The translations under genes were made by a program, and so were the position numbers. Below are positions 14,709-62,555 of a DNA stretch of 64,000 nucleotides, piece by piece. Under the pieces are notes generated by a model that was not told the DNA's origin, searched no databases, and saw only the letters and a list, made by a program, of their open reading frames with translations. The DNA comes from Candidatus Babelota bacterium (GTDB lineage: Bacteria > Babelota > Babeliae > Babelales > CAIQNR01). The stretch's first letter is position 1, and each line of letters opens with the position of its first letter. The stretch lies in NCBI GenBank assembly GCA_965658655.1, contig CBFHTA010000003.1, positions 52,969-116,968 of the forward strand, written 5' to 3'.

Positions 14709-16547
14709 ATGAAGAAAAAATTATTTTTCTTAGTCTTAATTGGATTGGTCTTTTCTGCAGGCATTTCTGCTGCTCACTCAAAAATGAAACCGCCTAGTAA
14801 AGAAGGAGCTTTGGGAACCTCAGTTCAGAAAGTAACATCTGCCCCACTACCTGTAGAAAGCTTTTCTGACAGTGATAATGAGCCTGATACAAAAAGACCA
14901 GACACCCCAAGAACTAAAAAACTATCCTCTACAAATAAACACGGTATTACTTCAATGGCAACGGTAAAAGCAACTAAGAATGAATGCTTAGATGGCAATG
15001 AAGGTAACGATAATGGTGCTACAGCTAGAGAAGGAGTAGACACTACAGAACCTAAAGAAGAATCTCCTGAAACAGGTGGCTGGCTCTCTGTAATAGCAAC
15101 CAAAGCAGCGGCACTCGTAGCAGGAGAAACAAGAGAAATAGAGTTTGTGCCGACAAAGAGCCAAGAAGAATTAACACCTAAAGAAGCTGCTGATAAAAAA
15201 ACAAATGAACTTTGTGCTGATATAAAAGAATTGGAAGACCTTTTGGCGGACACTCCAAATACTGAAGACCAAACTGAAAAAAGAAAAAAAATAACAGATC
15301 AAATTGGAGAAAAAGAAGCTGAAATTGTGAAAATTGCTGACACTTATAAAACACCTGACGACAAACATTCTTACTTGAAAAAAGGTGATGGTCCTGTATT
15401 AACATTCGATAGACGTCAACGCGTGCGCGAAGCACAAGCTATTAAAGCAAAAGAAAAACATGCTGTTCTTAGAAACAACATAGCGGAAGAAACAAAAAGA
15501 ATAGCCAACATTACACTACCAGAACTTAAAGAAAGCAGAGCGATTGAGTTCCATAAAACAAAAGCAGAAGAAATTAAAGCGCTAGAGAGCGATGATGGCA
15601 TAGAAGAAATTAAAAACACTCCTGACGCTTCCAAAGAAGTAACTCCACAAATTAAGCTTCCATCAAGAGCAATTGTTACACCATATTCTGTTCAAATGGA
15701 AACACAAAAAATAAAAAAGGGGGAAGATGGAAATTGTGTAGAAATACGAGTTCCTGTGTATAAGAAAACTACCAAATTTGATTACGGCGCCCCACAATTA
15801 AATCGAAATGACATACCTCTCACTCCAGAACAAAGATATGAAACTGTAATTCAAGAATTAAATACTCGAGAAATAAAAGCAAAGCTTAAGAACCGTATCC
15901 TAAACGCGGCCGGATACCAATACAATTTAAAAACAAAAAAACCCTTACACGAAGGTAAAGCAAAACGGGAGTCCCTCAAAAAACGTGTTTTAGAGCAAAA
16001 CATTGCTGCCACTCTTTCTCGTGCAAGTTTGGAAAATCTAGAAAAGATTCAATCTAGCAAACAATTACGAAAATTGTTAAAACGTTCCGTTTTATCCGAC
16101 GCATTCCATCAACATCAACTTGCTCTTGCACTAAACACAGTTGAAGGTCATGGCCTTGTAACTGAACTAGATCCAATCACTATTTCTACGCATCAAGGAA
16201 GTTCAGAAAGAAAAGCAGAACTTAAAGAAGAAAGAGATAGAACAAGGATAATCAAACAAGAATTAGAAAGACAATCAACCACAACGGCTAACACCAAAGA
16301 TCGGGCAGCAACAGCTATTGCGGCTACAGATAGAAAACTTAAAAATGCATCTGAACAACTTAAGGAACTTAGCGAGAAAGTCACCACACTAAAAGAACAA
16401 CGAGACGCGGAAATAAAAACACTTGCTCACGCTAAAATAATAGATAAACAAGCACAACAAAAAGTTGAAACCTACAATAAAAACAGACAGCCGTTGGTAG
16501 ATGCTCACAACGGACTTAGTGGTATATCCTGGCTCTGGCGATCGTAA
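14709..16547 (+). CDS. Large secreted hypothetical protein with disordered N-region and coiled coils
   Basis: AAGGAG RBS, MKKK signal peptide, long charged helical stretches. Confidence 0.75.
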   Translation: MKKKLFFLVLIGLVFSAGISAAHSKMKPPSKEGALGTSVQKVTSAPLPVESFSDSDNEPDTKRPDTPRTKKLSSTNKHGITSMATVKATKNECLDGNEGNDNGATAREGVDTTEPKEESPETGGWLSVIATKAAALVAGETREIEFVPTKSQEELTPKEAADKKTNELCADIKELEDLLADTPNTEDQTEKRKKITDQIGEKEAEIVKIADTYKTPDDKHSYLKKGDGPVLTFDRRQRVREAQAIKAKEKHAVLRNNIAEETKRIANITLPELKESRAIEFHKTKAEEIKALESDDGIEEIKNTPDASKEVTPQIKLPSRAIVTPYSVQMETQKIKKGEDGNCVEIRVPVYKKTTKFDYGAPQLNRNDIPLTPEQRYETVIQELNTREIKAKLKNRILNAAGYQYNLKTKKPLHEGKAKRESLKKRVLEQNIAATLSRASLENLEKIQSSKQLRKLLKRSVLSDAFHQHQLALALNTVEGHGLVTELDPITISTHQGSSERKAELKEERDRTRIIKQELERQSTTTANTKDRAATAIAATDRKLKNASEQLKELSEKVTTLKEQRDAEIKTLAHAKIIDKQAQQKVETYNKNRQPLVDAHNGLSGISWLWRS

Positions 16548-23897: not shown

Positions 23898-24329
23898 TTA
23901 TTTTACAGCAGGCACAGGAGAACGCAGAGAAGAGCGACTAGCAGGAGAAAAAGATGTAGGTCCACATGGTGAACCAGCATTAGTCGGTGTTTTAAATCCA
24001 TCAATCTTTTTCATAGAAAAACCATTTCCATGAGCAACTTCTTCTAACACTGCCTTTTGCAACGCTTCAGGCAAAGATTTAAGACAATCAAATATAGTAG
24101 CCTTTACCTTTATTTTTTTTTCATTTTCTACACTCATCTCCCAAGCTCTATATGCATCTTCTTGACTTTGCATAGGTCCGGGACCACCAAGCCAATCATC
24201 AGTTCCTACACAACAACCGCTACCAGCAGTTGTTCTATCATAATTTTCATAGTCAACATTAGCTGGAACAGCAGCGCTTAAATTTTGAGTCAGTGAACTT
24301 ACTAAAAAAAGAACAATAAATTTTTTCAT
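23898..24329 (-). CDS. Secreted hypothetical protein
   Basis: MKKF-hydrophobic-LSA signal peptide. Confidence 0.7.
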   Translation of the reverse strand: MKKFIVLFLVSSLTQNLSAAVPANVDYENYDRTTAGSGCCVGTDDWLGGPGPMQSQEDAYRAWEMSVENEKKIKVKATIFDCLKSLPEALQKAVLEEVAHGNGFSMKKIDGFKTPTNAGSPCGPTSFSPASRSSLRSPVPAVK

Positions 24330-24489
24330 TTTTTCCCACATTGTTATAACTTAAATTACCAATACGGGGTTTTATCGTACACAGCTTTTATCCTTTTGTA
24401 CAGCACATTTCTACCAATCATTGCTCTGCAAAGATGAGTGCGCTATTCTTAAAAAGAATGTTTAGTAATTTAAAAAAGGAGATACAAAT

Positions 24490-25326
24490 ATGTTCAACTC
24501 ACCCTTCTGGTGGAATTGGTATATCTTCCGATGGCAAGACATTATAGAAATTTTAGCGTTCTCAGGAGGTATCCTATACCTTTCTCTCTGGCTTAGGAGA
24601 GACACTTCAACACCATTGCTTGGTATTTTCTATGGATACTGCACTATCTTTTTATCCGCTTACTATTTTGAACTTTTCACACTGAGCACTGCACTCTTAA
24701 CCTTTGCTCCCATTACCGTTGCTGTTTGCTTAATGCTCCATCAATCAACACTACAAAAAAATTTTATTGCTCTTCATGCCATTACCTCAACAGAAGATAC
24801 ATCCGACTGGGTAGATTTAGTTATCCGCTCAGCACTCGTTTCACTTGGAGAAAACAAACCGGTTACTGCTATCATTGAGAAAACTCAAGCATTAGACACG
24901 CTACTTACGTCTATATACCCTTTTGACTGCCAATTCTCTGAAGGACTTTTCCAAGTTTTAATACATAGTAAAACATTCTCTTCAGACAACATGCTTTGGA
25001 TAACCAACGCAGGAAAATTGCGAGCAATAAACAGCAAATGGAAAAAAAGCTCAGTGGATGAATGGCTTGCTCAAGAAGTAAAAGAGCAAGAACAATGGCT
25101 CCAAGATGCACTTTTTTTTACCACTAGAACAGATGCCTTATTCTTTAAACTGAACCCCAAAACAAGAACGTTTACACTTGTTGCTCAAGGTAAAATTTTA
25201 CAACACGCTTCTGCCCACGCTGCTTTACGAATGATAAAAAAATATCTTGGATTAAACGCTCAAGAGAAGGAAAACGATTATGCTCATCTCGAAAAAACCA
25301 CATCTTCTGAACACACTCTCTCTTAG
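24490..25326 (+). CDS. CdaA/DacA-like membrane protein (3 TM + DisA_N/DAC fold) with degenerate active site
   Basis: DIIEIL..3 TM..HQSTLQK (cf. FQPELRR), AIIEK (cf. IVIER), RTDA (cf. TDA), AQGKI; upstream of a cdaR-like gene and glmM. Confidence 0.8.
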   Translation: MFNSPFWWNWYIFRWQDIIEILAFSGGILYLSLWLRRDTSTPLLGIFYGYCTIFLSAYYFELFTLSTALLTFAPITVAVCLMLHQSTLQKNFIALHAITSTEDTSDWVDLVIRSALVSLGENKPVTAIIEKTQALDTLLTSIYPFDCQFSEGLFQVLIHSKTFSSDNMLWITNAGKLRAINSKWKKSSVDEWLAQEVKEQEQWLQDALFFTTRTDALFFKLNPKTRTFTLVAQGKILQHASAHAALRMIKKYLGLNAQEKENDYAHLEKTTSSEHTLS

Positions 25327-25648
25327 TATAGTATCTTTAATTTTAGGATACTCGTTATGGCAAGCAATGAGCCAACCGTATACATTACATACCGTAATCA
25401 CTGTACCTATCTCATTTTACAATACAGAAAATTTAGCAATTGTAGCACCAGAGACAATCTCTTTACGCTTACAAGGTACACGCACAGATTTATATAAAAC
25501 AATTTCAAACCTTGCACTTCATTACGATGCAGCACAACTAGAGACAGGAACACACACGCTTAAAGTTACCCACGAAAATTTATTTTTACCTGACTCTGTC
25601 CTCTTGCTACACTATTTGCCAATAGAAGTCACAGTTACCAAAACATAA
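25280..25648 (+). CDS. CdaR/YbbR-like protein (single TM plus one YbbR-like domain)
   Basis: SIVSLILGYSLW TM, VPISFYN, PETISLRLQG; position between cdaA-like gene and glmM. Confidence 0.75.
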   Translation: MLISKKPHLLNTLSLSIVSLILGYSLWQAMSQPYTLHTVITVPISFYNTENLAIVAPETISLRLQGTRTDLYKTISNLALHYDAAQLETGTHTLKVTHENLFLPDSVLLLHYLPIEVTVTKT

Positions 25649-25660
25649 ATAAGGAACGTA

Positions 25661-26974
25661 ATGCACGCAACATTGTTTGGCACCGACGGTATAAGAAAAA
25701 CCATGGGACAAGAACCCTTGACCACTTCAAGTCTTATGAAGCTAGGTAACGCCATTGGCTATTGGATGACACATCATAATAAAACAAAGGTTGCCATTGC
25801 ACACGACACTCGTCTTTCCTGTCCACTGATAAAAGCAGCTCTTAAAAGTGGACTTTTGCTCTATCCTCTAGAAATTTCTGACTTGCACATACTCCCTACT
25901 CCTGCACTTTTTACTACGATTGAAAAAGGCATTGCAGATGTAGGAATTATGATCACCGCTTCTCATAATCAACATAAAGATAATGGGCTCAAAATTTTTA
26001 CACAAGAAACAGGAAAAACCACATTAATGCAAGAAAAAGAACTCTCTAAACTCTTTTACACATTACCTTCTTTAGTTTCTTCTTATGAGCATATTGGCAG
26101 CGAAACACAACCCTCCAATCCATCTATTGCATATCAAGAAAAACTATTACAGTATTTTGAAAAAAACTTTTTAAAAAACAGAACCATAGTACTCGATTGT
26201 GCTCACGGTGCCTACTTTAAACTTGCTCCTACATTGCTTAGAGTTTTGGGTGCAAAAGTTATTACTCTTTCAGATAAACCAACTGGCAAAAACATTAATT
26301 TAAACTGCGGATCACAATATCCTGAACAACTACAAAAGACAGTACTCAAACACAAAGCAGACTTAGGCTTTGCATTTGATGGAGACGGAGATCGTGTAGT
26401 GATGGTAGATGACAAAGGAAAACTCTACAATGGAGATCATATTTTAGCTTTGTTGCTCAATAATCCTACATACAAAGACCAAACAACCATTGTAAGTACC
26501 ATCATGGCAAATCAAGGGCTAGATAATCATCTTGCACAACAAAATAAAACATTAGAACGCACTGCTGTTGGAGACAAAAACGTACTCAAACGTATGCAAG
26601 AACTTAACTGTTTAGTGGGAGGAGAACCGTCTGGACACATTATCTTACGAGACTTCAACCAAACTTCTGACGGTCTTTTTACCGCACTCAGACTAGCAGA
26701 AACTGTTATAAACTCACCTCTTGAAACGTTTAAAAATTATCCACAAGTGCTCATCAATGTTCCCATTGAACTCAAAAAAGACTTATCCCTCAATCCCTAC
26801 GCAGCCATTATAAAAAAACACCAACAACAGTTAGTTGATGGAAGACTTATTGTTAGATATTCGGGAACAGAACCAATATTACGTGTTATGATAGAAGACC
26901 AAACCAAAGAGCATGCACAAAACATTGGTGCACTTTTATCGCAAGAATTAACCGCAACTCTTGCCCAGGAATGA
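25661..26974 (+). CDS. glmM: Phosphoglucosamine mutase
   Basis: LFGTDGIR, ITASHN phosphoserine loop, DGDGDR, GGEPSGH, RYSGTEP. Confidence 0.95.
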   Translation: MHATLFGTDGIRKTMGQEPLTTSSLMKLGNAIGYWMTHHNKTKVAIAHDTRLSCPLIKAALKSGLLLYPLEISDLHILPTPALFTTIEKGIADVGIMITASHNQHKDNGLKIFTQETGKTTLMQEKELSKLFYTLPSLVSSYEHIGSETQPSNPSIAYQEKLLQYFEKNFLKNRTIVLDCAHGAYFKLAPTLLRVLGAKVITLSDKPTGKNINLNCGSQYPEQLQKTVLKHKADLGFAFDGDGDRVVMVDDKGKLYNGDHILALLLNNPTYKDQTTIVSTIMANQGLDNHLAQQNKTLERTAVGDKNVLKRMQELNCLVGGEPSGHIILRDFNQTSDGLFTALRLAETVINSPLETFKNYPQVLINVPIELKKDLSLNPYAAIIKKHQQQLVDGRLIVRYSGTEPILRVMIEDQTKEHAQNIGALLSQELTATLAQE

Positions 26975-27603
26975 AAATGAAAAAAACATCTTTTTTTGAA
27001 ACAATATACAATTTGATAAAATCATTTTTTATCAATGGGTTGTTAACTCTGCTCCCTATTGTCATAACCCTTAGTTTCTTTTCGTTTACTTTTAGAATTA
27101 TTAAAGCTTGGCTTGCTCCATTACAAAAGCTTGATATACCCTATATCAATTTGATTCCTCATGGCGAAATTATACTTGTGGTTGTAGCTATTTTTACTGC
27201 CGGCATAGTTTTGCGATCTTTCATTGTTCAATCAGTTGTTAGTTTATTTGAGTTAGTACTCTCAAACGTTCCAATCATCTATCCAGTCTACAATGGTGTA
27301 AAGCAACTACTACATGCTTTTTCCCCAAGTGGAAAAGAAACATTTAAGCAAGTAGTGTTGGTTGAATTCCCATTGAAAGGAACCTACTGTTTAGGATTTT
27401 TAACAAGCGAACTTAAAACAGAATTATCTCCAAATAAAAAGGAGCCGTTTTACAATATTTTTGTACCAACGACTCCAAATCCTACTACCGGTTATTTTGT
27501 GATAGTCCCCGCTCAAAACTTTACTCCTGTTGACTTAACAACCGAAGAAGCAATGGCACTTATTATTTCTGGCGGCATTATTCAACCGGATAGATTTAAA
27601 TAA
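26971..27603 (+). CDS. DUF502 family membrane protein
   Basis: GLLTLLPIVIT, FKQVVLVEFP, FVPTTPNPTTGY, IISGG. Confidence 0.88.
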   Translation: MKMKKTSFFETIYNLIKSFFINGLLTLLPIVITLSFFSFTFRIIKAWLAPLQKLDIPYINLIPHGEIILVVVAIFTAGIVLRSFIVQSVVSLFELVLSNVPIIYPVYNGVKQLLHAFSPSGKETFKQVVLVEFPLKGTYCLGFLTSELKTELSPNKKEPFYNIFVPTTPNPTTGYFVIVPAQNFTPVDLTTEEAMALIISGGIIQPDRFK

Positions 27604-27607
27604 AAGA

Positions 27608-28054
27608 CTAAACTTTTAAAGCACGATTAGATTGCCCGGAAATACCTGAACGACTACTTTGATTATAATCAGTTCTTTGTACACGAGTATGAAGTTTGTG
27701 CTTAGGAAGTTTTTTAGATCTTCTTTTTTCTTCAAGTTTTGCTGCTTCTTCTGCTAGTTTAGCAAAATCAAAAGGAATTTTTTCTTCTCTTAAATCTCGA
27801 AACGATTCATCGATAAAATTGCTCCCATCTAAAACCCCTAAAAATCCACCTGCTCGTGGAGTAGAAGGCTCTTCCTCTTTTGCTACAGATGATTTCACAT
27901 ATCCATTTCTAGAAGCTCTTACTCGTCGTCCCTGAACTATTCGCGGTTTACCATACATTTTAAAAAGTCTATCTTGTACCTTTTTTTCTTCTTCCCCTGC
28001 TTGAATGCCCATAATCGTAAGTAATAAAATACTTAACACTTTCTGGTTAATCAC
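27608..28054 (-). CDS. Secreted hypothetical protein
   Basis: GTG start with AAGGAAGG RBS; hydrophobic segment ending IQA. Confidence 0.65.
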   Translation of the reverse strand: MINQKVLSILLLTIMGIQAGEEEKKVQDRLFKMYGKPRIVQGRRVRASRNGYVKSSVAKEEEPSTPRAGGFLGVLDGSNFIDESFRDLREEKIPFDFAKLAEEAAKLEEKRRSKKLPKHKLHTRVQRTDYNQSSRSGISGQSNRALKV

Positions 28055-28221: not shown

Positions 28222-28509
28222 CTATTTTTCTTTTTTCCCTCTTTTTTTCCTTGCAGCTTCTGCAGAAGCTGCAATTGCCGCCTCTCTTTGTGCAACTCGA
28301 GTCCCCTTTTTACCCAGTTGATAAAACCTTTGTTTCGCTTCAAGATCATCTAGATCTAGCAATACAGGTTTCTTACTTTGATTTACTAAATCTCGCCACT
28401 CTTTTTTTTCTTGTTTAGAAGCACCTTTGGGTGGTTTTTTCCCCTTTGGACAAAATACAGTGGTCGTTGCTGCAATTAATAAAACAGAAAATAATAATTT
28501 TTTATTCAT
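28222..28509 (-). CDS. Secreted, very basic hypothetical protein
   Basis: AAGGTGAG RBS; MNKK-hydrophobic-VFC; Lys-rich mature part. Confidence 0.65.
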   Translation of the reverse strand: MNKKLLFSVLLIAATTTVFCPKGKKPPKGASKQEKKEWRDLVNQSKKPVLLDLDDLEAKQRFYQLGKKGTRVAQREAAIAASAEAARKKRGKKEK

Positions 28510-28656: not shown

Positions 28657-29172
28657 TTATTGTTTTTTCTTTTCTTGTGTTGCATTAACACTATCTCCCC
28701 AAACTAACCATAAGATACCTGTATATACTTTTGAGCAACAATTTCTTGCACCGCCATGATTCGCTCTAGAAGGAAGTTTTCCACCATCTTTAGCAACTAT
28801 TTTTTTCGAAGATAGAAGATCATAATCCCTTTCTCTGCGCACAAGAGACTGATCTCGTGAAAATAGCTTAGGAGATCCATCTCCCGTAGCAAGTTTATGT
28901 TTAGTGTCTCCTGCTTCTGATCCTACAACCCTCTTTTTGTCGTTATATGCTCTCACAGCATTTTGAATTGTGATTGCAGCTTTAATCTGAAGATCTTTTT
29001 TTTCTGCTTCTACTTCTCTTAGCTCTTCATTTAATACCGCTACGTTTTCTTCATCTTTTTCTTGAAAACACTCAGAAGGACCAATACCGCCTGAATTTAT
29101 TGATTCACTATTAGATGCATGCATCTGTACAACAGACAGTAACAACACAATACTTAATGCTTTTTTCTTCAT
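28657..29172 (-). CDS. Secreted hypothetical protein with IQ-like motif
   Basis: MKKK-hydrophobic-MHA signal peptide; KAAITIQNAVRAYNDKKR. Confidence 0.7.
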   Translation of the reverse strand: MKKKALSIVLLLSVVQMHASNSESINSGGIGPSECFQEKDEENVAVLNEELREVEAEKKDLQIKAAITIQNAVRAYNDKKRVVGSEAGDTKHKLATGDGSPKLFSRDQSLVRRERDYDLLSSKKIVAKDGGKLPSRANHGGARNCCSKVYTGILWLVWGDSVNATQEKKKQ

Positions 29173-29362
29173 AATCATACCCTTTCTTACTTACTCATTT
29201 TTTCTTTTTCAAATCAACATAGCCCACAAGATAAACAAAAAACATCGTTGATTCTTATTTTTTGATCCACCAATGCTTTCTTTGTTAATCAGAATCTCTC
29301 ACCCAAAATTGTATAGTAAAAAAATAAGAATCACAGTTATTATTTTTTAGTCACCACTAGCA

Positions 29363-50153: not shown

Positions 50154-51020
50154 ATGTCACAGCTCATTCAAATGCGACGAAGAATCAAAGCAATTGAAAC
50201 TATTAAAAAAATTACCAGCGCAATGCGTCTTATTTCTCGATCTTTCCATATGCGAATGAACAAGGAACAAGAGACACTCAAGGAATATCGCGATACACTA
50301 TGTACCGTTTTTACACAACTTCGTGAAACAGCTCCTGAGTGGAAACCTACAAAATTTTTTCCATCAGAAAAACTTGTTGAAAAAGAACTTTTGATTATTG
50401 TTGGAGGCCAAAAAGGTTTGTGCGGTAATTTTAATACCAATTTATTTTACTGGATAGATACTCATAAAAATGAACTGAATGCTCCAGACAAACGCATTAT
50501 TGTACTTGGCAAACGCATTCAAGAACATTTAATTAAAAGAGCCATAGCCATTAAAAAAAATTACGAAGAGCTAAAACCAAGAAATCTTAATACACAAACA
50601 GAAGAGCTTCTAGAGGACATTTTTAATCAAGGCGAACATTACACAAAAGTAAGTATTCTAAGTAATCAATCTAAAACTTTTTTTGTGCACGAACAACGCT
50701 ATCAACAATTAATTCCTTTTATAGGATGTGCAGATAATAACAAAGCACATGCTTCTGAAGATTATCTGTGGCATCACAATTCAAGTAAAGTGCTCGATAC
50801 CCTAGCAGAAGATTTTATTAAAATATCTCTTAGAACAGCACTTTTTGAATCTTTACTAGCCGAGCAAGCAGCACGTTTTTTGTCTATGGATAACGCAACA
50901 AGAAACGCAAATAAATTCTTAGATAGCATGCAGCTACAATACAATAAAGCAAGACAAGCAAAGATTACTAAAGAGTTAACAGAACTTTCTGGAGCTTTTG
51001 AATCGGAATCACTCGTATAA
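50154..51020 (+). CDS. atpG: ATP synthase F1 gamma subunit
   Basis: KKITSAMRLIS, KGLCGNFN, EQAARFLSMDNATRNA, YNKARQAKITKEL. Confidence 0.95.
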   Translation: MSQLIQMRRRIKAIETIKKITSAMRLISRSFHMRMNKEQETLKEYRDTLCTVFTQLRETAPEWKPTKFFPSEKLVEKELLIIVGGQKGLCGNFNTNLFYWIDTHKNELNAPDKRIIVLGKRIQEHLIKRAIAIKKNYEELKPRNLNTQTEELLEDIFNQGEHYTKVSILSNQSKTFFVHEQRYQQLIPFIGCADNNKAHASEDYLWHHNSSKVLDTLAEDFIKISLRTALFESLLAEQAARFLSMDNATRNANKFLDSMQLQYNKARQAKITKELTELSGAFESESLV

Positions 51021-52328
51021 TTTTACATTTGCTCCAAGTGCACAGAGTTTATCTTCTAATCCCTGATACCCTCGTTTCCAATGATGCACACCCGAAATAG
51101 TAGTGCGCCCTTCGGCAACTAAACCAGCGAGTACAAGTGCACATGAAGCTCGAATATCACTTGCAATTACATGCTCTCCATACAACCGCTCTACACCGCG
51201 AATTAACGCAGTGTCGTGATCAATATCTATTTGGGCCCCCATTTTAGCCAATTCTCTTGCATGCATTAACCGATTCTCAAATACCGTTTCCTGAACACAA
51301 GATGTTCCTTGAGCTAACGCAAGAGCGGCAACCATATACGGCTGCATATCGGTGGGAAAACCAGGATAAGGTGCAGTTTTAATACGCACAGCTTGAGGGT
51401 TCTTTGTTGCTTTAATTTTAATACCAGTGCCACTTGGATGAATTAAAATGGTATGTCCCATTTCTTGAAACTTCATCAACAACATTCCCATGGCATGTGC
51501 AGGACCTTGAGGAAGATGAACGTATCCTCCCGAAATTGCTCCCGCCGTAAGAAGCGCCGCTGCCTCCATACGATCGAACATAATGGTGTAATCAACGGGC
51601 TTAAGTTCTTCTACTCCCCTAATAGTAATAGTCGCAGGTGCATCGACCTCTATACGTGCTCCCATTCTTTTTAAAACCGCTACCAGATCAAAAACCTCTG
51701 GTTCCAAAGCAGCATTAATAATACGAGATGTTCCGGGTGTAAGTGTGGCAAACATCAGTAAATTTTCTGTGGCTCCTACACTTGGATATTCAAGTAAAAG
51801 ATTACGCGCTTTTACTCTTTCCGTATGTGCATTCATAGTATGATCACGCTCTTCTACTACCACACCCATTTTTTCAAAATTAGTAACATGGTAATCAACT
51901 GGGCGTGCACCAATAACGTCTCCTCCCGGAAACCCTATCTTTGCTTTTCCAAAACGCGCAAGCAATGGACCCATAACCAAAACTGAAGCTCGCATTTTTT
52001 TCATCATATCAGGAGCTACACTATATTCTTCTAATCCCCGTGTATCTACTTCAAGAACATTTGCCATTGGATCAAATTCAACATCTGCACCTAAATTTTT
52101 GAGCAATTCAATCATATTAATAACATCTTCAGAGGCAGGAACATTACGCAATACCGAAACCCCTTTAGTCAAAATTAAAGAAGTCATAATAACCAAAGTA
52201 GCGTTTTTTGCACCCAACAAATTTGCTTGCCCTTCTAGAGGAGGAGAATGCTCTACCTCTAAATAAGGTGTTATGGGAGACTGCGAAGTTACAGGGGATG
52301 AAAAAGGTTGAATAACGTGCTCAGACAT
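51009..52328 (-). CDS. murA: UDP-N-acetylglucosamine 1-carboxyvinyltransferase (Asp at the Cys115-equivalent position)
   Basis: GAKNA, MRASVLVMGPLLAR, PGGDVIGARPVD, SVGATEN, PGFPTDMQ, DIRAS. Start placed at MSEH. Confidence 0.96.
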   Translation of the reverse strand: MSEHVIQPFSSPVTSQSPITPYLEVEHSPPLEGQANLLGAKNATLVIMTSLILTKGVSVLRNVPASEDVINMIELLKNLGADVEFDPMANVLEVDTRGLEEYSVAPDMMKKMRASVLVMGPLLARFGKAKIGFPGGDVIGARPVDYHVTNFEKMGVVVEERDHTMNAHTERVKARNLLLEYPSVGATENLLMFATLTPGTSRIINAALEPEVFDLVAVLKRMGARIEVDAPATITIRGVEELKPVDYTIMFDRMEAAALLTAGAISGGYVHLPQGPAHAMGMLLMKFQEMGHTILIHPSGTGIKIKATKNPQAVRIKTAPYPGFPTDMQPYMVAALALAQGTSCVQETVFENRLMHARELAKMGAQIDIDHDTALIRGVERLYGEHVIASDIRASCALVLAGLVAEGRTTISGVHHWKRGYQGLEDKLCALGANVKLYE

Positions 52329-52437
52329 CGACTCTCTTTTTTCTATAAAAATTCTATACGTAATAAAGAGGTAGTGTATACTAGAGATGTAGAGTTTACA
52401 AATCATCAATTCATTACTTTTTGTATGGAGAAAAGGC

Positions 52438-53040
52438 ATGGCATCGGAACAACCAAAAAAAGGAAGTTTGGAAGTTGTTTGTGGATCAATGTTTTCAGGG
52501 AAATCAGAAGAACTCATTAGAAAATTAAGACGCGCAAAAATCGCCAAGAAAAAAATTCTTGTATTTAAGCCAAGTCTTGATCATCGAACCTCACTTGCCC
52601 ATGTTTCTTCACACAATGGTAACAAGTTCAATGCTATTGCTGTAGATACTCCGCTACACATTATTGAGCAAACCCCTATTGATACAGACGTTGTAGGAAT
52701 AGATGAAGCACAATTCTTTTCACACGAATTAGTAAACACCGTACTAGACCTTGTTAATGATGGAAAAACAGTACTAGTCGCTGGTCTTAATATGGATTAC
52801 CGAGGCGTTCCTTTTGGGCCAATGCCAACTTTAATTGCATTAGCAGACAAAATTACAAAATTGAGTGCAATCTGTATTCAATGTGGAGACGAAGCTTATT
52901 TCTCTCAACGCTTAGTAAACGGACATCCTGCAAAGTATGAAGATCCACTCGTGCAAATTGGTGCAGAAGAAGCATATCAAGCACGCTGCAGAGATTGTTT
53001 TATTATCGATAGAAAACCATTATGGCAAAAAACTCTGTAA
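52438..53040 (+). CDS. tdk: Thymidine kinase
   Basis: GSMFSGKSEEL, IDEAQFF, zinc lasso CIQC...CRDC. Confidence 0.96.
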   Translation: MASEQPKKGSLEVVCGSMFSGKSEELIRKLRRAKIAKKKILVFKPSLDHRTSLAHVSSHNGNKFNAIAVDTPLHIIEQTPIDTDVVGIDEAQFFSHELVNTVLDLVNDGKTVLVAGLNMDYRGVPFGPMPTLIALADKITKLSAICIQCGDEAYFSQRLVNGHPAKYEDPLVQIGAEEAYQARCRDCFIIDRKPLWQKTL

Positions 53041-54386
53041 TTTTTAGTTGTTCTAACTGTACCCATACCAGTCCTAAATGGATGGGGTGCTGCCCCAGTT
53101 GTAGTGAATGGAATAGTTTTATTGAAGAAAAGAAAGCTACTCCTACACCAAAAACTACCGGTGCTCGAAAGCTACAGCCCGATTTGGGCAATACACTAAA
53201 CATGCATAAACTTGCAGACATTTCTACTACCTCGCAAAGCCGTTTACTCTCTGGTATTGGAGAATGGGACACCGTAGTAGGCGGTGGAATTATGCCTGGC
53301 TCCCTGCTGGTTCTCACTGGTGATCCCGGCATTGGGAAATCTACATTATTACTTCATGTAGCAAATAAACTCGCTTCAAAACATTCAGTTTTTTACTTTT
53401 CATCTGAAGAATCGTTAGAGCAAGTAAAGTCACGAGCTGAAAGAATTAATAGCCTAGACAGCAAGCTTCTGTTTTCTGACCAAGCTCACATCGAAAGTAT
53501 TATTACAACGAGTCAGCAACATAAACCCGATGTTATTATTATCGACTCTATTCAAAATTGTTTCTTCTCTGACTCACATACCTTTCCCGGCACCGTAGGA
53601 CAACTAAGAGAAACTTCATTTGCACTAATGCGCCTTGCCAAAGAACATAATATTGCCATTATCATGACCTGTCATATCACCAAAGAAGGTCACATGGCAG
53701 GGCCAAAAACATTAGAACATATGGTAGATGGTGTGTTTTACTTACAAGGGGAAGATCGCTGGCACACCCGTATTTTACGCAGTGTTAAAAATAGATTCGG
53801 AGCTCTACACGAACTTGGTTTTTTTGCTATGACGGGCAAAGGCATGGAACAGGTTCCCCATATAAACCAATATTTATTAGATGAGACAGCACACGCTCCC
53901 GGTGCAGTACTTGTCAGCTGCCTTGAAGGTTCCAGACCATTACTACTAGAGATTCAAGCTTTGGTAGTACCTACAAAATTTAATGTTCCTCAACGGGTTA
54001 TTACAGGACTAGACCACAAGAGAGTTGTTTTAATCGCCGCAATTTTAGAAAAATATTTGCAAATTCGATTCAGTGCACACGACATTTTTGTAAAAATCAG
54101 TGGTGGGATCAAAATAAATGAAAGCTCTTCAGACTTAGGAATCGCCCTTGCTCTGCTCTCTAGCTACTTTCAACAATCATTGCCAGAAAAAGCAATGGCC
54201 CTTGGCGAGCTCAGTTTAACCGGATCCGTAAAACCTATTAATGCGATAGACACACAAATAAAAGAAGCTCAAAAATTTGGTGTTAAACATTTGTTTTTAG
54301 CTCATTCGCAAAAACTAAATTCTCCCAATATTGTAAAGCTTAAGAGTGTATACCAACTCCTTGGTTTATTCGATACCGAAAAATAA
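53022..54386 (+). CDS. radA: DNA repair protein RadA/Sms
   Basis: C4 zinc finger, GDPGIGKST, IDSIQ, GPKTLEHMVD, KNRFG, Lon-like C-terminus. Confidence 0.96.
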   Translation: MAKNSVIFSCSNCTHTSPKWMGCCPSCSEWNSFIEEKKATPTPKTTGARKLQPDLGNTLNMHKLADISTTSQSRLLSGIGEWDTVVGGGIMPGSLLVLTGDPGIGKSTLLLHVANKLASKHSVFYFSSEESLEQVKSRAERINSLDSKLLFSDQAHIESIITTSQQHKPDVIIIDSIQNCFFSDSHTFPGTVGQLRETSFALMRLAKEHNIAIIMTCHITKEGHMAGPKTLEHMVDGVFYLQGEDRWHTRILRSVKNRFGALHELGFFAMTGKGMEQVPHINQYLLDETAHAPGAVLVSCLEGSRPLLLEIQALVVPTKFNVPQRVITGLDHKRVVLIAAILEKYLQIRFSAHDIFVKISGGIKINESSSDLGIALALLSSYFQQSLPEKAMALGELSLTGSVKPINAIDTQIKEAQKFGVKHLFLAHSQKLNSPNIVKLKSVYQLLGLFDTEK

Positions 54387-54453: not shown

Positions 54454-55344
54454 ATGTTGTTCTCTCCCGCTACTGAAAATGGCCGTAAAGTTTTAAAAAA
54501 ATGTGTAAAGTTCTTCGCTTCTCATCCTCTTTCTCTGATCTTTCCTATTTTAATTATTGTAAATACCAGCGCTATATTTTTAAGTGTTCTCGCTGCAGAA
54601 GAACATTATTATGGGATATCTTTATTTAAACCCGAAACATTTTATAACTGGTTATCTATTGATATATCACATCACTTATTTAAAGCATTTTTTTTATTGT
54701 TTATATTATTTATCACATCATTTATTAATAATATTTTCAACACTGCCCTTACTTTCTACTTTTTGAAAAAATTAAACAAACAAAAACACTCTCTTTTGCT
54801 TGCACTTAAATGGTCTTTTTTGAAAATTCCTTTAATCAGTTATATAGCCACTATTCTCCTTATAGATCTTGTATACAACTTTCTTAACAACCTTTTATCT
54901 CCTTACATTTTTTTCGAAGAGCTCCTTGCCGTATTACAGGGGAAAAAACTTAATCCCAAAAATATGCTCCATGCAGAAGAAGGAATGATTTTTTTACCTC
55001 TTATAGTCAGCAACGATAAGAGTATTCCTGAAAATATTGTACAAAGTGATTCTTTAATGAAAAAATCATTTGGCGAAAATTTTATTTGGAATGTTTCTTT
55101 TCTAGAAATTAAATTTTTTACAATTCTTATTGTTGTAAGCACATTTGGATTCTTTACACATTATCATTACAATCTTTTGCCAGCCTTTATTTTTTCATTC
55201 TTTTTGATTTTTATAGTTTTTCTCCTTATAGATACCACTATCCTCTTTTTTAAAGCATGTCTTTTTAATTACATTGCAAAAAAACCTACAGGGAACTTTA
55301 CAAGAAAAGAGATAAATTCATATTTTATTAAAGAAGAACAATAA
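54454..55344 (+). CDS. Multi-pass membrane protein of unknown function
   Basis: AAAGGA RBS; several hydrophobic segments; very AT-rich. Confidence 0.7.
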   Translation: MLFSPATENGRKVLKKCVKFFASHPLSLIFPILIIVNTSAIFLSVLAAEEHYYGISLFKPETFYNWLSIDISHHLFKAFFLLFILFITSFINNIFNTALTFYFLKKLNKQKHSLLLALKWSFLKIPLISYIATILLIDLVYNFLNNLLSPYIFFEELLAVLQGKKLNPKNMLHAEEGMIFLPLIVSNDKSIPENIVQSDSLMKKSFGENFIWNVSFLEIKFFTILIVVSTFGFFTHYHYNLLPAFIFSFFLIFIVFLLIDTTILFFKACLFNYIAKKPTGNFTRKEINSYFIKEEQ

Positions 55345-55837: not shown

Positions 55838-58800
55838 ATGTTCAAAGGGATGGTTCGTACAAAAAGTTTCTGGTCAGTCTTAGTAGCAGCGAGTCTAGTA
55901 AGCGCAGTAGTCGGAAGTAAATATTTATTCAAAGTACTTCCCATGATTTCTGTAGATGTAAAAATGAATAGGGAACAGGCTCTGGAAAAAACAGCCACCT
56001 TAGCAAAAAACAATAATTGGGCGCCCCAAGACTGCTGGCAAACAGCACATTTTCAACAAGATCATGTTACTCAATTCTTTGCAGAACTTGAATGCGGTGG
56101 CATTACAGCATTTCAAACAATGATCGAAGATAAACTGTATGAACCATATCAATGGCATGTTAGAAATTTTAAAGAAAGTGTCACCCAGGAAACACATATT
56201 TTCTTCACTGCTCAAGGAGAACCCTATGGTTTTGAAGTAAAACTAGCAGAAGACGAGACTCCTGGAAATTTGGGAATAACAGAAGCCCGCAAACTTGCAC
56301 TGCAACTTGCACAAAAAGACTGGAATGTTTCATTTGATGATTATAAAGAAGTAGAAACATCAAAAGAAGAAACTCCTAAAGGGCGAATAGACCATACTTT
56401 CTTATACGAGCGCACCAATGCAACACTTGGAAAAGAAGGTAAATACAGAATTAAACTAGTAGTATCTGGAAACGTTTTCGCACAACTAAAGCAGTTTGTA
56501 CAAGCCCCCGAAGGCTTTATGCGTCGTTACGAAGCAATGAGATCAAAAAATAATATTTTTGCGAGCAGTTTCGGCATGCTTTTTAAAGTATTATTCTTGC
56601 TCTTAGGTGGTTTAATTGGCGGTTTTATTCTTATTCGTAAAAGAAGGTATTTACTCATTCCTGCCGCTGCAGCAGTTGGAATTCTCTCTTTCTTTGCTCT
56701 TTTAAATACCTTTAATAATCTTCCACTAGCGTGGATGAATTACAACACTGCACAATCTTCTAGCAGTTTTATGGTTAGTCTTATTACCATGAGTCTTTTT
56801 GGGGTATTACAAAATTTTATAGCCTTCTTATTGGTGGTAGGAGCCGGAGAAAGCTTAGGAAGATGGGCATTTCCTAATCATGTTCAATTTTGGAAATCAT
56901 GGTCAAAGAAAACCGGAGGCACATTAACGGTGCTGGGACAAACTCTTGGTGGCTATGCGCTTTTCTGTTTTGAATTACCATTGATGGCTGCACTTTACTA
57001 TGCACTTACACAAGGGCTTGGCTGGTGGGCTCCAACAGGCACCTTAATAAACCCTAATATTCTTGCCACCTATGCACCATGGCTTGGCGCATTCTCTAAT
57101 TCTTTATCTGCAGGATTCTGGGAAGAATTCGCGTTCCGTGCATTGCCCATAGCCGGTATGATTGTTTTAGGTAGATACTTTAAACAAGAAAAACTTTTTT
57201 TAATTATAGCAATGATTGCACAAGCCATTATTTTTGGTGGCATGCATACATTCTACGCTCAACAACCTGTCTATTTTAGAATTGTAGAACTTCTTATACC
57301 ATCACTATTATGGGCAGCAGTTTATTTAGCATTTGGTCTACTACCTGGAATTATTTGCCATTACCTTTGGGATTTAATGTGGTTCTCTTTCCCTATTATG
57401 GCCTCAAACGCATCGGGAGCATTACCACAAAAAATTATTATTATACTCACAGCACTGTTACCCCTTTTAATTGTCCTATTTAGAAGATGGCAAATAGGCA
57501 AATGGGAATACGCTTCTAAATCATCTAAAAATAGTGCGTGGAAAGTTCCTGCAGAAACGATAGAAGAAGCAGGCCCTGTAAAAACTGTTACATCCACTCT
57601 ATCTGATTATAAATTGAAACTTATTCTTGGTGCCGGTGTGCTTGGTCTTGCTGCTTGTTTATTCTTTGGAAAAGAGAGAAATACCAACCCTCCATTAACG
57701 CTTTCTAAAGAACAGGCCATTGTTGCTGCAAAAGAAGCTGTAAATGCTTTACCTGATACTGATAAAAATTGGACTATTGTAGCTCAAGCAGATAATGGTG
57801 TTACACCACAACAATTGAGGAATTACACTCATATCCATCGCTTTGTATGGCGCACTCAACTAAGAAAAATCTATAAAAAACTCTTAGGCACCTATCTAAC
57901 AACTGTACATTGGAAAACTCGCTTCATGCTCTTTGAAGGTGATATTGCTGAACGCGCAGAAGAATATATATGTTTTATTAACACCAAAGGGGAAGTCTAC
58001 CGAATTTGGCATATATTACCCGAGGCTCAAAAAGGTAAATCTCTTTCAGAAGGTGAAGCTCGAGGCATTGCTCTTTCTACTGTTAAAGAGCATTTTGGTT
58101 TGAGTACCGATCAACTTAAAGAAATATCAGCTATCGATATTAAAAAGCCTGAACGTAAAGACTGGAATTTCATCTTCCAAGACACCACACATAAACTTAA
58201 AGACGGCGGACAAACACGTATTAACATTGTTATTGGTGGAGATAAAATTGTTGATTACGAACGATTTATTTTTGTTCCCGAAGCATGGACTCGCGCTGAA
58301 ACACTACGAGAAGGAGTACTTTCTTCATTTGGTATGATCTCTATGCTTTTTCTTGTATTGCTCATTATGCTCAGTGTAGGAACCACAGCAAAGACATCTT
58401 TTGAGGGATTTAAGTTTTCTAGGTTCTTAGTATTCTTTGGAACTGTTCTCGCTATTTCAGGAATAAGTGTTATTAATAAAATTCCACTTTTCTCTTTTAC
58501 CTTCAGCTCTGCGCAACCATTTAACAACCAACTTTTTTCTATTTTAACATCACTATTTGGCTCAGTTTTGCTTCAAGGCTTTGGTTTAGCCTTTCTTTTA
58601 ATTGGCTTTAGAGCTTACTGCATGCAAACACATTATAAGAAAACTACACTACTTCCTCTTGTAGGATTTGCACTTGCATTAATTATAGCCGGTATCAGTT
58701 CGTGCTGTGATGCATTTCTACCACAATTATCTCCTAAAGTAGCCGATTTAACAGGACTTTCCACTTCTTCTGTTTTAGTAAATATATTTATCTTTGGTAG

Positions 58801-59185
58801 TTTTTACCTATTTCTGCTGATAGCACTTTTTGTGCCGGTAAGTATTTGCTTAACAACAGTTACCAACTATTGGAAAAAAAGAAACATTGTTGGTTTTATA
58901 CTTTGCGTAGCAACCGGAATCGCACTGACTGCAATGGGTGGACCAGAATCTCTAATTGCTTGCTTTGTAATTGGAATACCTATGGGTATTGGTTTCTATG
59001 CTATTCACAGATACGTGCTGATGTATGATCCAAGCCTGTTTGTTCCATTTTTTGCAGGAAGCTTAGCTTTAGAAATGTTACAGAATGGATTGCTTTATGG
59101 ATACCCTACAGCTTTGACTAATACTCTAATAGGTATTGTATGCACATTTGCTATAGGAATATTCTGGTTTAAAAAAATAAGATAG
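55838..59185 (+). CDS. Large CPBP (CAAX protease/Abi) family intramembrane glutamic protease with internal duplication
   Basis: EEFAFR, FGGMH and HYLWD CPBP motifs; two homologous extracytoplasmic domains. Confidence 0.85.
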   Translation: MFKGMVRTKSFWSVLVAASLVSAVVGSKYLFKVLPMISVDVKMNREQALEKTATLAKNNNWAPQDCWQTAHFQQDHVTQFFAELECGGITAFQTMIEDKLYEPYQWHVRNFKESVTQETHIFFTAQGEPYGFEVKLAEDETPGNLGITEARKLALQLAQKDWNVSFDDYKEVETSKEETPKGRIDHTFLYERTNATLGKEGKYRIKLVVSGNVFAQLKQFVQAPEGFMRRYEAMRSKNNIFASSFGMLFKVLFLLLGGLIGGFILIRKRRYLLIPAAAAVGILSFFALLNTFNNLPLAWMNYNTAQSSSSFMVSLITMSLFGVLQNFIAFLLVVGAGESLGRWAFPNHVQFWKSWSKKTGGTLTVLGQTLGGYALFCFELPLMAALYYALTQGLGWWAPTGTLINPNILATYAPWLGAFSNSLSAGFWEEFAFRALPIAGMIVLGRYFKQEKLFLIIAMIAQAIIFGGMHTFYAQQPVYFRIVELLIPSLLWAAVYLAFGLLPGIICHYLWDLMWFSFPIMASNASGALPQKIIIILTALLPLLIVLFRRWQIGKWEYASKSSKNSAWKVPAETIEEAGPVKTVTSTLSDYKLKLILGAGVLGLAACLFFGKERNTNPPLTLSKEQAIVAAKEAVNALPDTDKNWTIVAQADNGVTPQQLRNYTHIHRFVWRTQLRKIYKKLLGTYLTTVHWKTRFMLFEGDIAERAEEYICFINTKGEVYRIWHILPEAQKGKSLSEGEARGIALSTVKEHFGLSTDQLKEISAIDIKKPERKDWNFIFQDTTHKLKDGGQTRINIVIGGDKIVDYERFIFVPEAWTRAETLREGVLSSFGMISMLFLVLLIMLSVGTTAKTSFEGFKFSRFLVFFGTVLAISGISVINKIPLFSFTFSSAQPFNNQLFSILTSLFGSVLLQGFGLAFLLIGFRAYCMQTHYKKTTLLPLVGFALALIIAGISSCCDAFLPQLSPKVADLTGLSTSSVLVNIFIFGSFYLFLLIALFVPVSICLTTVTNYWKKRNIVGFILCVATGIALTAMGGPESLIACFVIGIPMGIGFYAIHRYVLMYDPSLFVPFFAGSLALEMLQNGLLYGYPTALTNTLIGIVCTFAIGIFWFKKIR

Positions 59186-61376: not shown

Positions 61377-62555
61377 CTAGAAATTAAATCCAGCACCTAA
61401 CTTAAAGTTAAATGACCAGAGTTTAAATATAGGCGGAGTTAAAGTTACAAGATGACGAGCTACATCATGTTTTAAGTTATTAAAGTTATTGGTGTGATCT
61501 ATAGAAGCTCCTGCATCCGGTGAAACTAGATAAAGTTCTTTAGAGTAAGTTTGTTTTACATAACCTACGTCATAAGCAAAAATAATATCTAATGGACCAG
61601 CTTCTTTAGAAACGTTAAGACCAAATTCTACGGTTGGTCGAGACTTATTTGAAGCCAAGAATTGTCCAGTATTGTGTAATAGATCGTTGGTTCCTTCATA
61701 AATACGAAGATCTCTTAGTGCACCGACAGAAAGCCCTGTTCCTAGTTTAAAGTTATATCTGAATCCGTAATATCTAAAGAGCTCGTATTGCCCAAAGACA
61801 AGTACAGACCATTTTTTAATAGATTGGCGAGTTCGTAAGTCACCTGCAACTCCTACATCTTTATAAGTCCCTTGATAGGCATCGTTCTTCTTTGCAAAGG
61901 AAGCTTGAATACCCATAGCTCCTTCAACTGTTTTACCTGCTTTAAACAATGACGGTAGATTTTCGTAAACCGCTGACAACACATAAGAAACTTGAGGAGC
62001 TGGTTTTGACTTAGTGATTTCAATAGTATCTTTTTCTGTTTCTACTGCATTACTTAATAAACCATTTGCAGCTACGCCTGCTTGTACAGCATCAAGGAGC
62101 TCTGTCTTTTGTTCTTTGTGGTATACCATAAATCCATAATTGAATTCTTGTTGGTAGTTTTTAAATCTACCATCTTTGAACCTTACTTGGTTTCTTTTTG
62201 CTTCTGCACGATCTTTTTTACGTTGCACTTCTTTAACCTGAAATTTTGCTATTCTTTTTAACTTCTTATCATGTTTCTTTGATGAAGAAGAATGAGCAGG
62301 AGGCGTGGGAGCTTTACTAACAGCTATTTTATGTAACTTAGATTTTTTGTGAGGTTTAGTAATGTTTTTTGCTTTTAAAGTCTTATGATGTTTCTTTGAT
62401 GAAGAAGAATGAGCAGGAGGCGTGGGAGCTTTATTAACAGCCATTTTATTTGACTTTTCAGAGTCTCCATCGTTAATAAGTCTTTGACGTTTAGCATCCA
62501 ATGACCCTATGAGAAGAAGGAATATTGCTATTCCTAGTTTTTTACTTTTATTCAC
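61377..62555 (-). CDS. Probable outer-membrane beta-barrel protein with basic, repeated N-terminal extension
   Basis: Signal peptide; amphipathic beta strands; C-terminal FNFKLGAGFNF ending in Phe (BamA-type beta signal). Confidence 0.72.
   Translation of the reverse strand: MNKSKKLGIAIFLLLIGSLDAKRQRLINDGDSEKSNKMAVNKAPTPPAHSSSSKKHHKTLKAKNITKPHKKSKLHKIAVSKAPTPPAHSSSSKKHDKKLKRIAKFQVKEVQRKKDRAEAKRNQVRFKDGRFKNYQQEFNYGFMVYHKEQKTELLDAVQAGVAANGLLSNAVETEKDTIEITKSKPAPQVSYVLSAVYENLPSLFKAGKTVEGAMGIQASFAKKNDAYQGTYKDVGVAGDLRTRQSIKKWSVLVFGQYELFRYYGFRYNFKLGTGLSVGALRDLRIYEGTNDLLHNTGQFLASNKSRPTVEFGLNVSKEAGPLDIIFAYDVGYVKQTYSKELYLVSPDAGASIDHTNNFNNLKHDVARHLVTLTPPIFKLWSFNFKLGAGFNF
62271..62433 (-). repeat. Exact 46-nt intragenic direct repeat (KAPTPPAHSSSSKKH x2)
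   Basis: Copies at 62271-62316 and 62388-62433, 117 nt apart. Confidence 0.9.

Follow-up and report, generated by a model that had tools for sequence, protein, structure and literature searches.

The window analysed here, a 64,000-nucleotide stretch of the genome of a Candidatus Babelota bacterium (contig CBFHTA010000003.1), carries an open reading frame (ORF) of 278 amino acids (aa) that heads an operon with a cdaR-like gene and glmM. We found that its product is a true but very diverged homologue of CdaA, the membrane diadenylate cyclase that makes cyclic di-AMP (c-di-AMP), and that its catalytic motifs have been lost throughout the lineage and not in this copy alone. The gene is under strong purifying selection and occurs in the same sampled genomes as its CdaR-like neighbour, with which the retained dead cyclase probably works in a messenger-independent membrane complex. 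This lineage, most likely Dependentiae/Babeliales, is uncultured, and its genomes measure roughly 0.8-1.9 Mb; the genome to which the window belongs measures 928,713 bp and is 95.4% complete.

Homology, motif loss and selection in the CdaA-like family

The original prediction, made from the window alone, held that the 278-aa ORF follows the CdaA layout and has a diadenylate cyclase (DAC) fold, and both profile and structure comparisons bore this out. The protein by itself gave no match to the Pfam DAC profile (PF02457) at E≤1 and matched NCBIfam TIGR00159 CdaA at E 6.5e-4 with 19.1 bits, not reaching the cut-off of 188.8; the PF02457 score of its best relative, 22.3 bits, likewise lay under the cut-off of 27. 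The HMMER check proposed with the prediction thus failed for the single sequence, but it succeeded for a family profile built from an alignment of 26 orthologues, which matched 15 solved chains of CdaA, DacA or CdaM at E≤1e-3. Among them, full-length CdaA (9g69_C, E 3.1e-10) was the best match; it pairs profile positions 22-278 with chain residues 30-287, a span in which the membrane part is matched too.

The AlphaFold2 (AF2) model of the protein (mean predicted local distance difference test score, pLDDT, 77.2) consists of three N-terminal helices followed by an alpha/beta domain. All the matches listed by Foldseek for this model were DAC-domain proteins (best E 2.3e-10; TM(target) 0.72-0.81 among the top chains). 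The superposition on a CdaA-type structure was run as proposed, using VIA, and gave Z 17.1 to Staphylococcus aureus DacA (6gyw_A), with 147 of 150 residues aligned at a root-mean-square deviation of 2.7 Å. Z ranged from 14 to 17 for 35 CdaA/DacA/CdaM-type entries and from 11.5 to 11.9 for DisA, and the next unrelated fold reached 5.1; sequence identity to the solved chains is 11-17%. Since the profile matches, Foldseek and VIA agree, we consider homology and fold established.

Alignment to solved CdaA chains located the places of the catalytic motifs. TRHR aligns with Q202-W203-L204-Q205 in the profile alignments, so that RHR is replaced by W203-L204-Q205, and VSEETG aligns with L221-N-P-K-T-R226 (LNPKTR). 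In the register of the hidden Markov model, H-D-G-A aligns with S164-S165-D166-N167, which puts S165-D166-N167 at the place of DGA. The replacements of RHR and SEE were therefore as originally claimed, and DGA is indeed absent, but its register had been set one residue off, with the Asp of the motif assigned to D166 (codon 24985). Neither register contains DGA, and the DGA columns are variable across the family. Because the residues for ATP phosphates, metal and catalysis are lost, the CdaA-like protein most likely makes no c-di-AMP.

To extend this to the family, we pooled 248 unique members, each of which matched the 26-orthologue profile at E≤1e-20; the search of representative proteins contributed to the family as the best 150 of 2039 matches listed. 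At the aligned places, DGA was found in 0/248 members, RHR in 0/248 and [ST]E[ED] in 0/248. Twenty-five columns are conserved in at least 85% of the members: D17, E20, I21, Y29, W34, L35, D38, L43, F47, Y48, Y50, P74, H84, L88, Q89, N91, W107, L116, I129, E130, L135, G175, N181, D215 and G234. Sixteen of them fall between residues 17 and 91, that is, in the membrane and juxtamembrane parts, and the mean frequency of the top residue is 0.54 in the membrane part against 0.45 in the DAC part, so that conservation is highest in the membrane part. In the DAC part, the adenine-stacking Tyr of solved CdaA is matched by W184 in 3/3 printed alignments; residue 184 is W in 206 of the 248 members, F in 8 and Y in 3.

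The CdaA-like gene is under strong purifying selection. Compared with a congener (G001), its product shows 81% aa identity, with a proportion of nonsynonymous differences (pN) of 0.117, a proportion of synonymous differences (pS) of 0.717, which is saturated, and pN/pS 0.16. The corresponding values are 75%, 0.149 and 0.579 for the CdaR-like gene, and 66%, 0.216 and 0.636 for glmM, so that in this comparison the CdaA-like gene changes more slowly than the adjacent glmM. Three further close pairs gave dN/dS (the ratio of nonsynonymous to synonymous rates) of 0.13, 0.18 and 0.33 for the CdaA-like gene, and orthologues without stop codons were found in 31 of 41 related genomes, at identities from 81% down to 22%. 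A decaying pseudogene, which we also considered, is ruled out by the intact frame in 31 genomes and by the pN/pS of 0.16. The prediction of a retained pseudo-enzyme with a DAC fold was thus upheld, and the computable outcomes that would have spoken against it (no DAC fold, close relatives with DGA or RHR, neutral evolution) were not observed, because the fold was found, none of the 248 relatives keeps DGA or RHR, and selection is purifying.

The family is broad, with 348 clusters (50% identity) at E≤1e-30 among 1.84 billion representatives. None of 86 relatives from databases carries a DAC domain; each is entered as "hypothetical protein" or without a name. The public records of some close relatives (L041, P0156, P0194) bear ill-fitting names such as Alteromonas species or Epsilonproteobacteria and are probably mislabelled bins.

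Search for c-di-AMP proteins and co-inheritance with a CdaR-like partner

The original prediction also called for a genome search for other DAC enzymes, phosphodiesterases and c-di-AMP receptors. We used the window's own genome, an order sample of 81 genomes and a phylum sample of 121 genomes, in which the other 120 are labelled "same order" or "same family", together with 14 control genomes for the PF02457 search. PF02457 had no match at E≤10 in the own genome, and a match above its cut-off in 0/81 genomes of the order sample and 0/121 of the phylum sample, compared with 11/14 controls; the weak matches in genomes of the lineage were orthologues of the CdaA-like gene itself. No working DAC was found, and neither was a GdpP-type DHH protein (the only DHH protein is RecJ), a PgpH 7TM-HD domain, a DarA-type receptor or a c-di-AMP riboswitch in the own genome, AtaC-type phosphodiesterases and other receptors not having been searched. 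These observations suggest that these small-genome bacteria live without c-di-AMP.

In some bacteria, radA is followed by disA. The radA gene of the window (53022-54383) is followed by a 296-aa ORF (54454-55341), which was rejected as a degenerate DisA: its single match was a weak one to a membrane domain (E 1.1e-4), and it has no DAC domain.

The product of the gene next to the CdaA-like ORF is a YbbR protein. Pfam YbbR (PF07949) matches 8/26 members of its family (best 3.1e-7), with no match at E≤1 for the window's own copy, and the CdaR-like family profile matches Lmo2119 (5hqh) at E 1.8e-5. Its AF2 model (pLDDT 87.2) has a helix at residues 6-31 and a single beta domain at residues 35-121, and the top five Foldseek matches of this model are YbbR proteins. 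Firmicute CdaR has several tandem YbbR domains; these are not present here, as the protein comprises 122 aa and one beta domain.

We observed that the two genes are inherited together. In the phylum sample, the CdaA-like profile was found in 94/121 genomes and the CdaR-like profile in 94/121, with identical family and genus tallies, although the genomes are related and these counts are not independent events. The coordinates of the two are nearly always adjacent; exceptions were seen in G053, where 6 kb separate them, and in G136, where the contigs are split. Neither gene was found in seven families (0/3, 0/2, 0/7, 0/2, 0/5, 0/1 and 0/1). Within the operon, the only strict link is that between the CdaA-like and CdaR-like genes.

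The operon and the place of glmM and DUF502

The reading of the locus as an intact 278-aa ORF behind an AAGGAG ribosome-binding site, overlapping a one-domain YbbR/CdaR-like gene and followed by glmM, was confirmed, coordinates included. The features are as follows.

24476..24481, + strand: AAGGAG ribosome-binding site, read from the sequence, 8 nt upstream of the ATG that opens the CdaA-like gene
24490..25326, + strand: CdaA-like putative pseudo-cyclase gene, 278 aa plus stop (uninterrupted ORF and family profile match)
24532..24780, + strand: N-terminal membrane part, residues 15-97 (AF2 helices 15-36, 43-59 and 63-97)
within 24532..24780, + strand: juxtamembrane motif H84-Q-x-T-L88-Q89-K-N91-F (family conservation)
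24781..25257, + strand: DAC-fold domain, residues 98-256, without DGA, RHR and SEE and with W184 kept (VIA, Foldseek and motif columns)
25280..25648, + strand: CdaR-like gene, 122 aa, one N-terminal transmembrane helix and a single YbbR domain (profile, AF2 and Foldseek)
25661..26974, + strand: glmM, phosphoglucosamine mutase, 437 aa (four PGM_PMM domains)
26971..27603, + strand: DUF502 membrane protein gene, 210 aa (PF04367 at E 1.6e-29; its start overlaps the glmM stop, ATGA)

The CdaA-like and CdaR-like ORFs overlap by 47 nt, and no terminator-like site was seen on the + strand inside the four-gene operon. The GC content of the window is 37%.

GlmM of the window has all four PGM_PMM Pfam domains. 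It matches TIGR01455 at E 1.5e-114 with 383.1 bits, under the equivalog cut-off of 447.55; because this cut-off is passed by 0/121 genomes of the phylum sample, the low score reflects lineage-wide divergence, and automatic annotation may give the GlmM of this lineage only generic names. The stretches SHN, FDGDGDR, GEPSGH and RYSGTE, which we take to be the conserved catalytic loops of GlmM, are invariant in 17 orthologues. GlmS, GlmU and MurA are present in the own genome and indicate that the pathway of GlmM is active. The murA ORF (51012-52547, - strand, 512 aa) has an EPSP_synthase domain that begins only at residue 100, so that it carries either an N-terminal extension or an over-called start.

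The order cdaA-like, cdaR-like, glmM was found here and at 24/29 loci with a CdaA-like match. Nevertheless, pair and glmM proved mutually independent. A glmM-family match at E≤1e-40 exists in 117/121 genomes, including 21/21 sampled genomes from the seven families in which the pair is absent. Conversely, the DUF502 domain starts 200-300 bp past cdaR in 18 pair-bearing genomes, leaving no room for glmM (G027, G033, G050, G055, G091, G092, G093, G094, G095, G102, G107, G128, G138, G139, G141, G145, G148 and G149), and about 20 of the sampled genomes are without operon glmM. Inspection of five loci (G033, G019, G039, G092 and G149) found glmM in 0/5 and DUF502 in 5/5, directly after the pair in three and behind one unrelated ORF in G019 and G039. 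In genomes without operon glmM, the best glmM-family match lies at E 1e-44 to 1e-60 or is absent at 1e-40; the former is the range that a second, paralogous PGM/PMM gene reaches in genomes possessing both genes (G000:C3:27355-28701, 1.2e-51). All five tested genomes without operon glmM (G033, G093, G019, G092 and G149) keep glmU and murA, and the paralogous PGM/PMM appears to have taken over from GlmM where operon glmM is gone.

The DUF502 gene belongs to the operon. It lies 3' of glmM in 14/16 relatives and occurs in 107/121 genomes, and it follows glmM in genomes without the pair as well. Because of this adjacency in pair-less genomes, and of the position of DUF502 after the pair where glmM is gone, the ancestral operon probably read cdaA-like, cdaR-like, glmM, DUF502. 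As an obligate third partner of the pair, DUF502 was ruled out by the tally of the phylum sample (both in 84 genomes, pair only in 10, DUF502 only in 23, neither in 4), which shows no association. No functional study of the DUF502 family was among the matches listed for literature mentioning DUF502.

Four small - strand ORFs of 95-173 aa lie around the operon (23898-24341, 27608-28054, 28222-28509 and 28657-29178). They have a hydrophobic N-terminus, are rich in Lys, Glu and Ser, give no Pfam match and may encode secreted proteins. Elsewhere in the window, Pfam gave no match at E≤1e-5 for the large ORFs at 55838-59182 (1115 aa), 14709-16544 (612 aa) and 61380-62555 (392 aa).

Possible roles of the pair and relation to known systems

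We favour the following scenario. An ancestral membrane diadenylate cyclase CdaA became the 278-aa protein, keeping its layout of three helices, juxtamembrane helix and DAC fold while losing the residues for ATP phosphates, metal and catalysis (DGA, RHR and SEE), and thus, most likely, c-di-AMP synthesis. This loss is old and lineage-wide, and no working DAC enzyme was found in the lineage. The protein is kept by strong purifying selection as the obligate partner of the one-domain CdaR/YbbR membrane protein. Most likely the two make up a membrane complex that needs no messenger and is left over from the CdaA-CdaR-GlmM module; it would act through protein contacts in the envelope instead of a nucleotide signal. 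GlmM and the DUF502 membrane protein would be ancestral operon neighbours and not obligatory partners. An envelope-related role is suggested by ancestry and operon context.

Several points weigh against this scenario. The lack of cyclase activity, most likely as it is, is deduced from the motifs, and the physical complex of the CdaA-like and CdaR-like proteins is a proposed one. The role of the pair appears to be dispensable in some lineages, because the pair was not found in 27/121 genomes, among them seven whole families. Some ligand pocket may survive, because W184 occupies the place of the Tyr that stacks on adenine. Finally, a KtrA-like RCK protein is kept next to TrkH in the own genome, and such proteins are c-di-AMP targets in Firmicutes.

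The same protein pair invites a bolder proposal, namely that the CdaA-CdaR complex has an ancestral function free of c-di-AMP and that this lineage is a natural separation-of-function mutant, which we regard as possible but doubtful. If this were true, the lineage dropped the messenger, perhaps because hosts sense c-di-AMP, yet had to keep the pair; the same hidden function would be expected in Firmicute CdaA-CdaR, and it would explain the unclear role of CdaR.

The original prediction had pictured the protein as perhaps a membrane scaffold linking a periplasmic sensor with GlmM. In such an arrangement, the dead cyclase would tether or regulate GlmM at the membrane under periplasmic control by the YbbR protein, coupling the state of the envelope to hexosamine flux without a messenger. 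The shared gene order, the operon free of + strand terminator-like sites and the active GlmS-GlmU-MurA pathway all agree with this, and GlmM of Firmicutes binds the DAC domain (PMC8573169). Our results weakened the idea nonetheless, and we now find it rather unlikely. The pair is kept without operon glmM in 18 genomes, where DUF502 comes straight after cdaR and the glmM-family match is weak or absent at 1e-40, and five genomes with only a weak match still keep glmU and murA; in turn, all 21 sampled genomes from the pair-less families retain glmM. Furthermore, the interface does not appear to be preserved. In Bacillus subtilis, R126 of CdaA contacts D151, E154 and D195 of GlmM, and R126A abolishes the complex (PMC8573169). 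Alignment to B. subtilis GlmM (7ojr_A) places P154, A157 and V195 at these three acidic positions, where acidic residues occur in 0, 1 and 1 of 17 orthologues, respectively. On the side of CdaA, structure ranges place R126 only in the neighbourhood of E121, a variable column; K123, two residues further on, is K or R in 196/248 members. S. aureus DacA, moreover, leaves GlmM activity unchanged in vitro (PMC6368335). A complex prediction with two copies each of GlmM (residues 1-350) and of the DAC-like part (residues 105-254) scored 0.00 in both runs and was weighed neither for nor against the scaffold.

The other readings concern the DAC domain itself, for which the original prediction had also suggested a new ligand or product specificity. 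Degenerate GGDEF/EAL domains that serve as cyclic di-GMP receptors offer a parallel for a pseudo-enzyme whose DAC fold has kept the ability to bind a ligand, be it an adenine nucleotide or some other planar molecule, and signals to the membrane part and CdaR. The Trp at residue 184, present in most of the family, would suit such a role, as would the polar residues N181, Q205, K213 and R226, which are conserved specifically in this family. In Listeria monocytogenes CdaA, Tyr187 stacks on the adenine and backbone atoms of Leu188 also hold it, a contact that needs no particular side chain (PMC10167629). However, every known phosphate and metal ligand is gone, the conserved Trp may be merely structural, and conservation is higher in the membrane part than in the DAC part, so that we judge a ligand sensor unlikely. 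Strong selection together with a conserved polar set (E130, N181, D215, Q205, K213 and R226) could also point to a new enzyme, in which the DAC fold makes or degrades another product with a different active site. We hold this to be very improbable: E130 and D215 are probably fold residues, because they are identical in the aligned solved CdaA chains, no metal-binding pair is evident, and the operon content points to no new substrate. Continued synthesis of c-di-AMP through non-canonical residues is hardly credible; the DAC fold is retained and the KtrA-like RCK protein is present, but DGA, RHR and SEE are each missing from all 248 members, and the own genome yielded no phosphodiesterase, DarA-type receptor or riboswitch in a search that did not cover the AtaC type. 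A dead cyclase retained with its CdaR-like partner in a membrane complex remains the reading that we prefer.

In work on c-di-AMP, CdaA is regarded purely as a cyclase that CdaR and GlmM regulate. In 94 of the 121 sampled genomes, cyclase chemistry would be gone, yet the CdaA-CdaR pair is more tightly conserved than GlmM. A messenger-independent role of the pair thereby becomes directly testable, with a natural control that separates the protein from its product, and life without c-di-AMP would bear on how c-di-AMP-sensing hosts see these bacteria. At the level of listings and abstracts, we found no publication describing a dead CdaA-CdaR pair; the Dependentiae genome literature listed makes no mention of c-di-AMP, and the CdaA literature listed deals with canonical proteins only. 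New here are the 94/94 co-occurrence with the CdaR-like gene, the mutual independence of pair and glmM, the loss of the Firmicute interface residues, DUF502 as an operon member and the aromatic residue kept at the adenine position.

Among known systems, LapD, FimX and PelD likewise keep the folds of signalling enzymes after losing catalysis. These degenerate GGDEF/EAL proteins bind a messenger made by other enzymes in the same cell, whereas no enzyme making c-di-AMP was found in the lineage studied here. Firmicute CdaA/DacA of B. subtilis, of L. monocytogenes and of S. aureus resemble the present family in their three membrane helices and DAC fold, with a full-length profile match, in having a YbbR protein and glmM in the same operon order, and in the aromatic residue at the Tyr187 position. 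In contrast to them, the family has lost DGA, RHR and SEE, falls below the Pfam and NCBIfam cut-offs and shares 11-17% identity with the solved chains; its CdaR-like partner carries a single YbbR domain where Firmicute CdaR has several, the residues for contact with GlmM have not been conserved, and the operon contains an extra DUF502 gene. DacA-YbbR of Chlamydia trachomatis includes an active enzyme, the c-di-AMP of which triggers host STING. Unlike that system, the family described here is devoid of the catalytic motifs, but the two have in common an intracellular, Gram-negative-type bacterium, a small genome and a dacA-ybbR pair.

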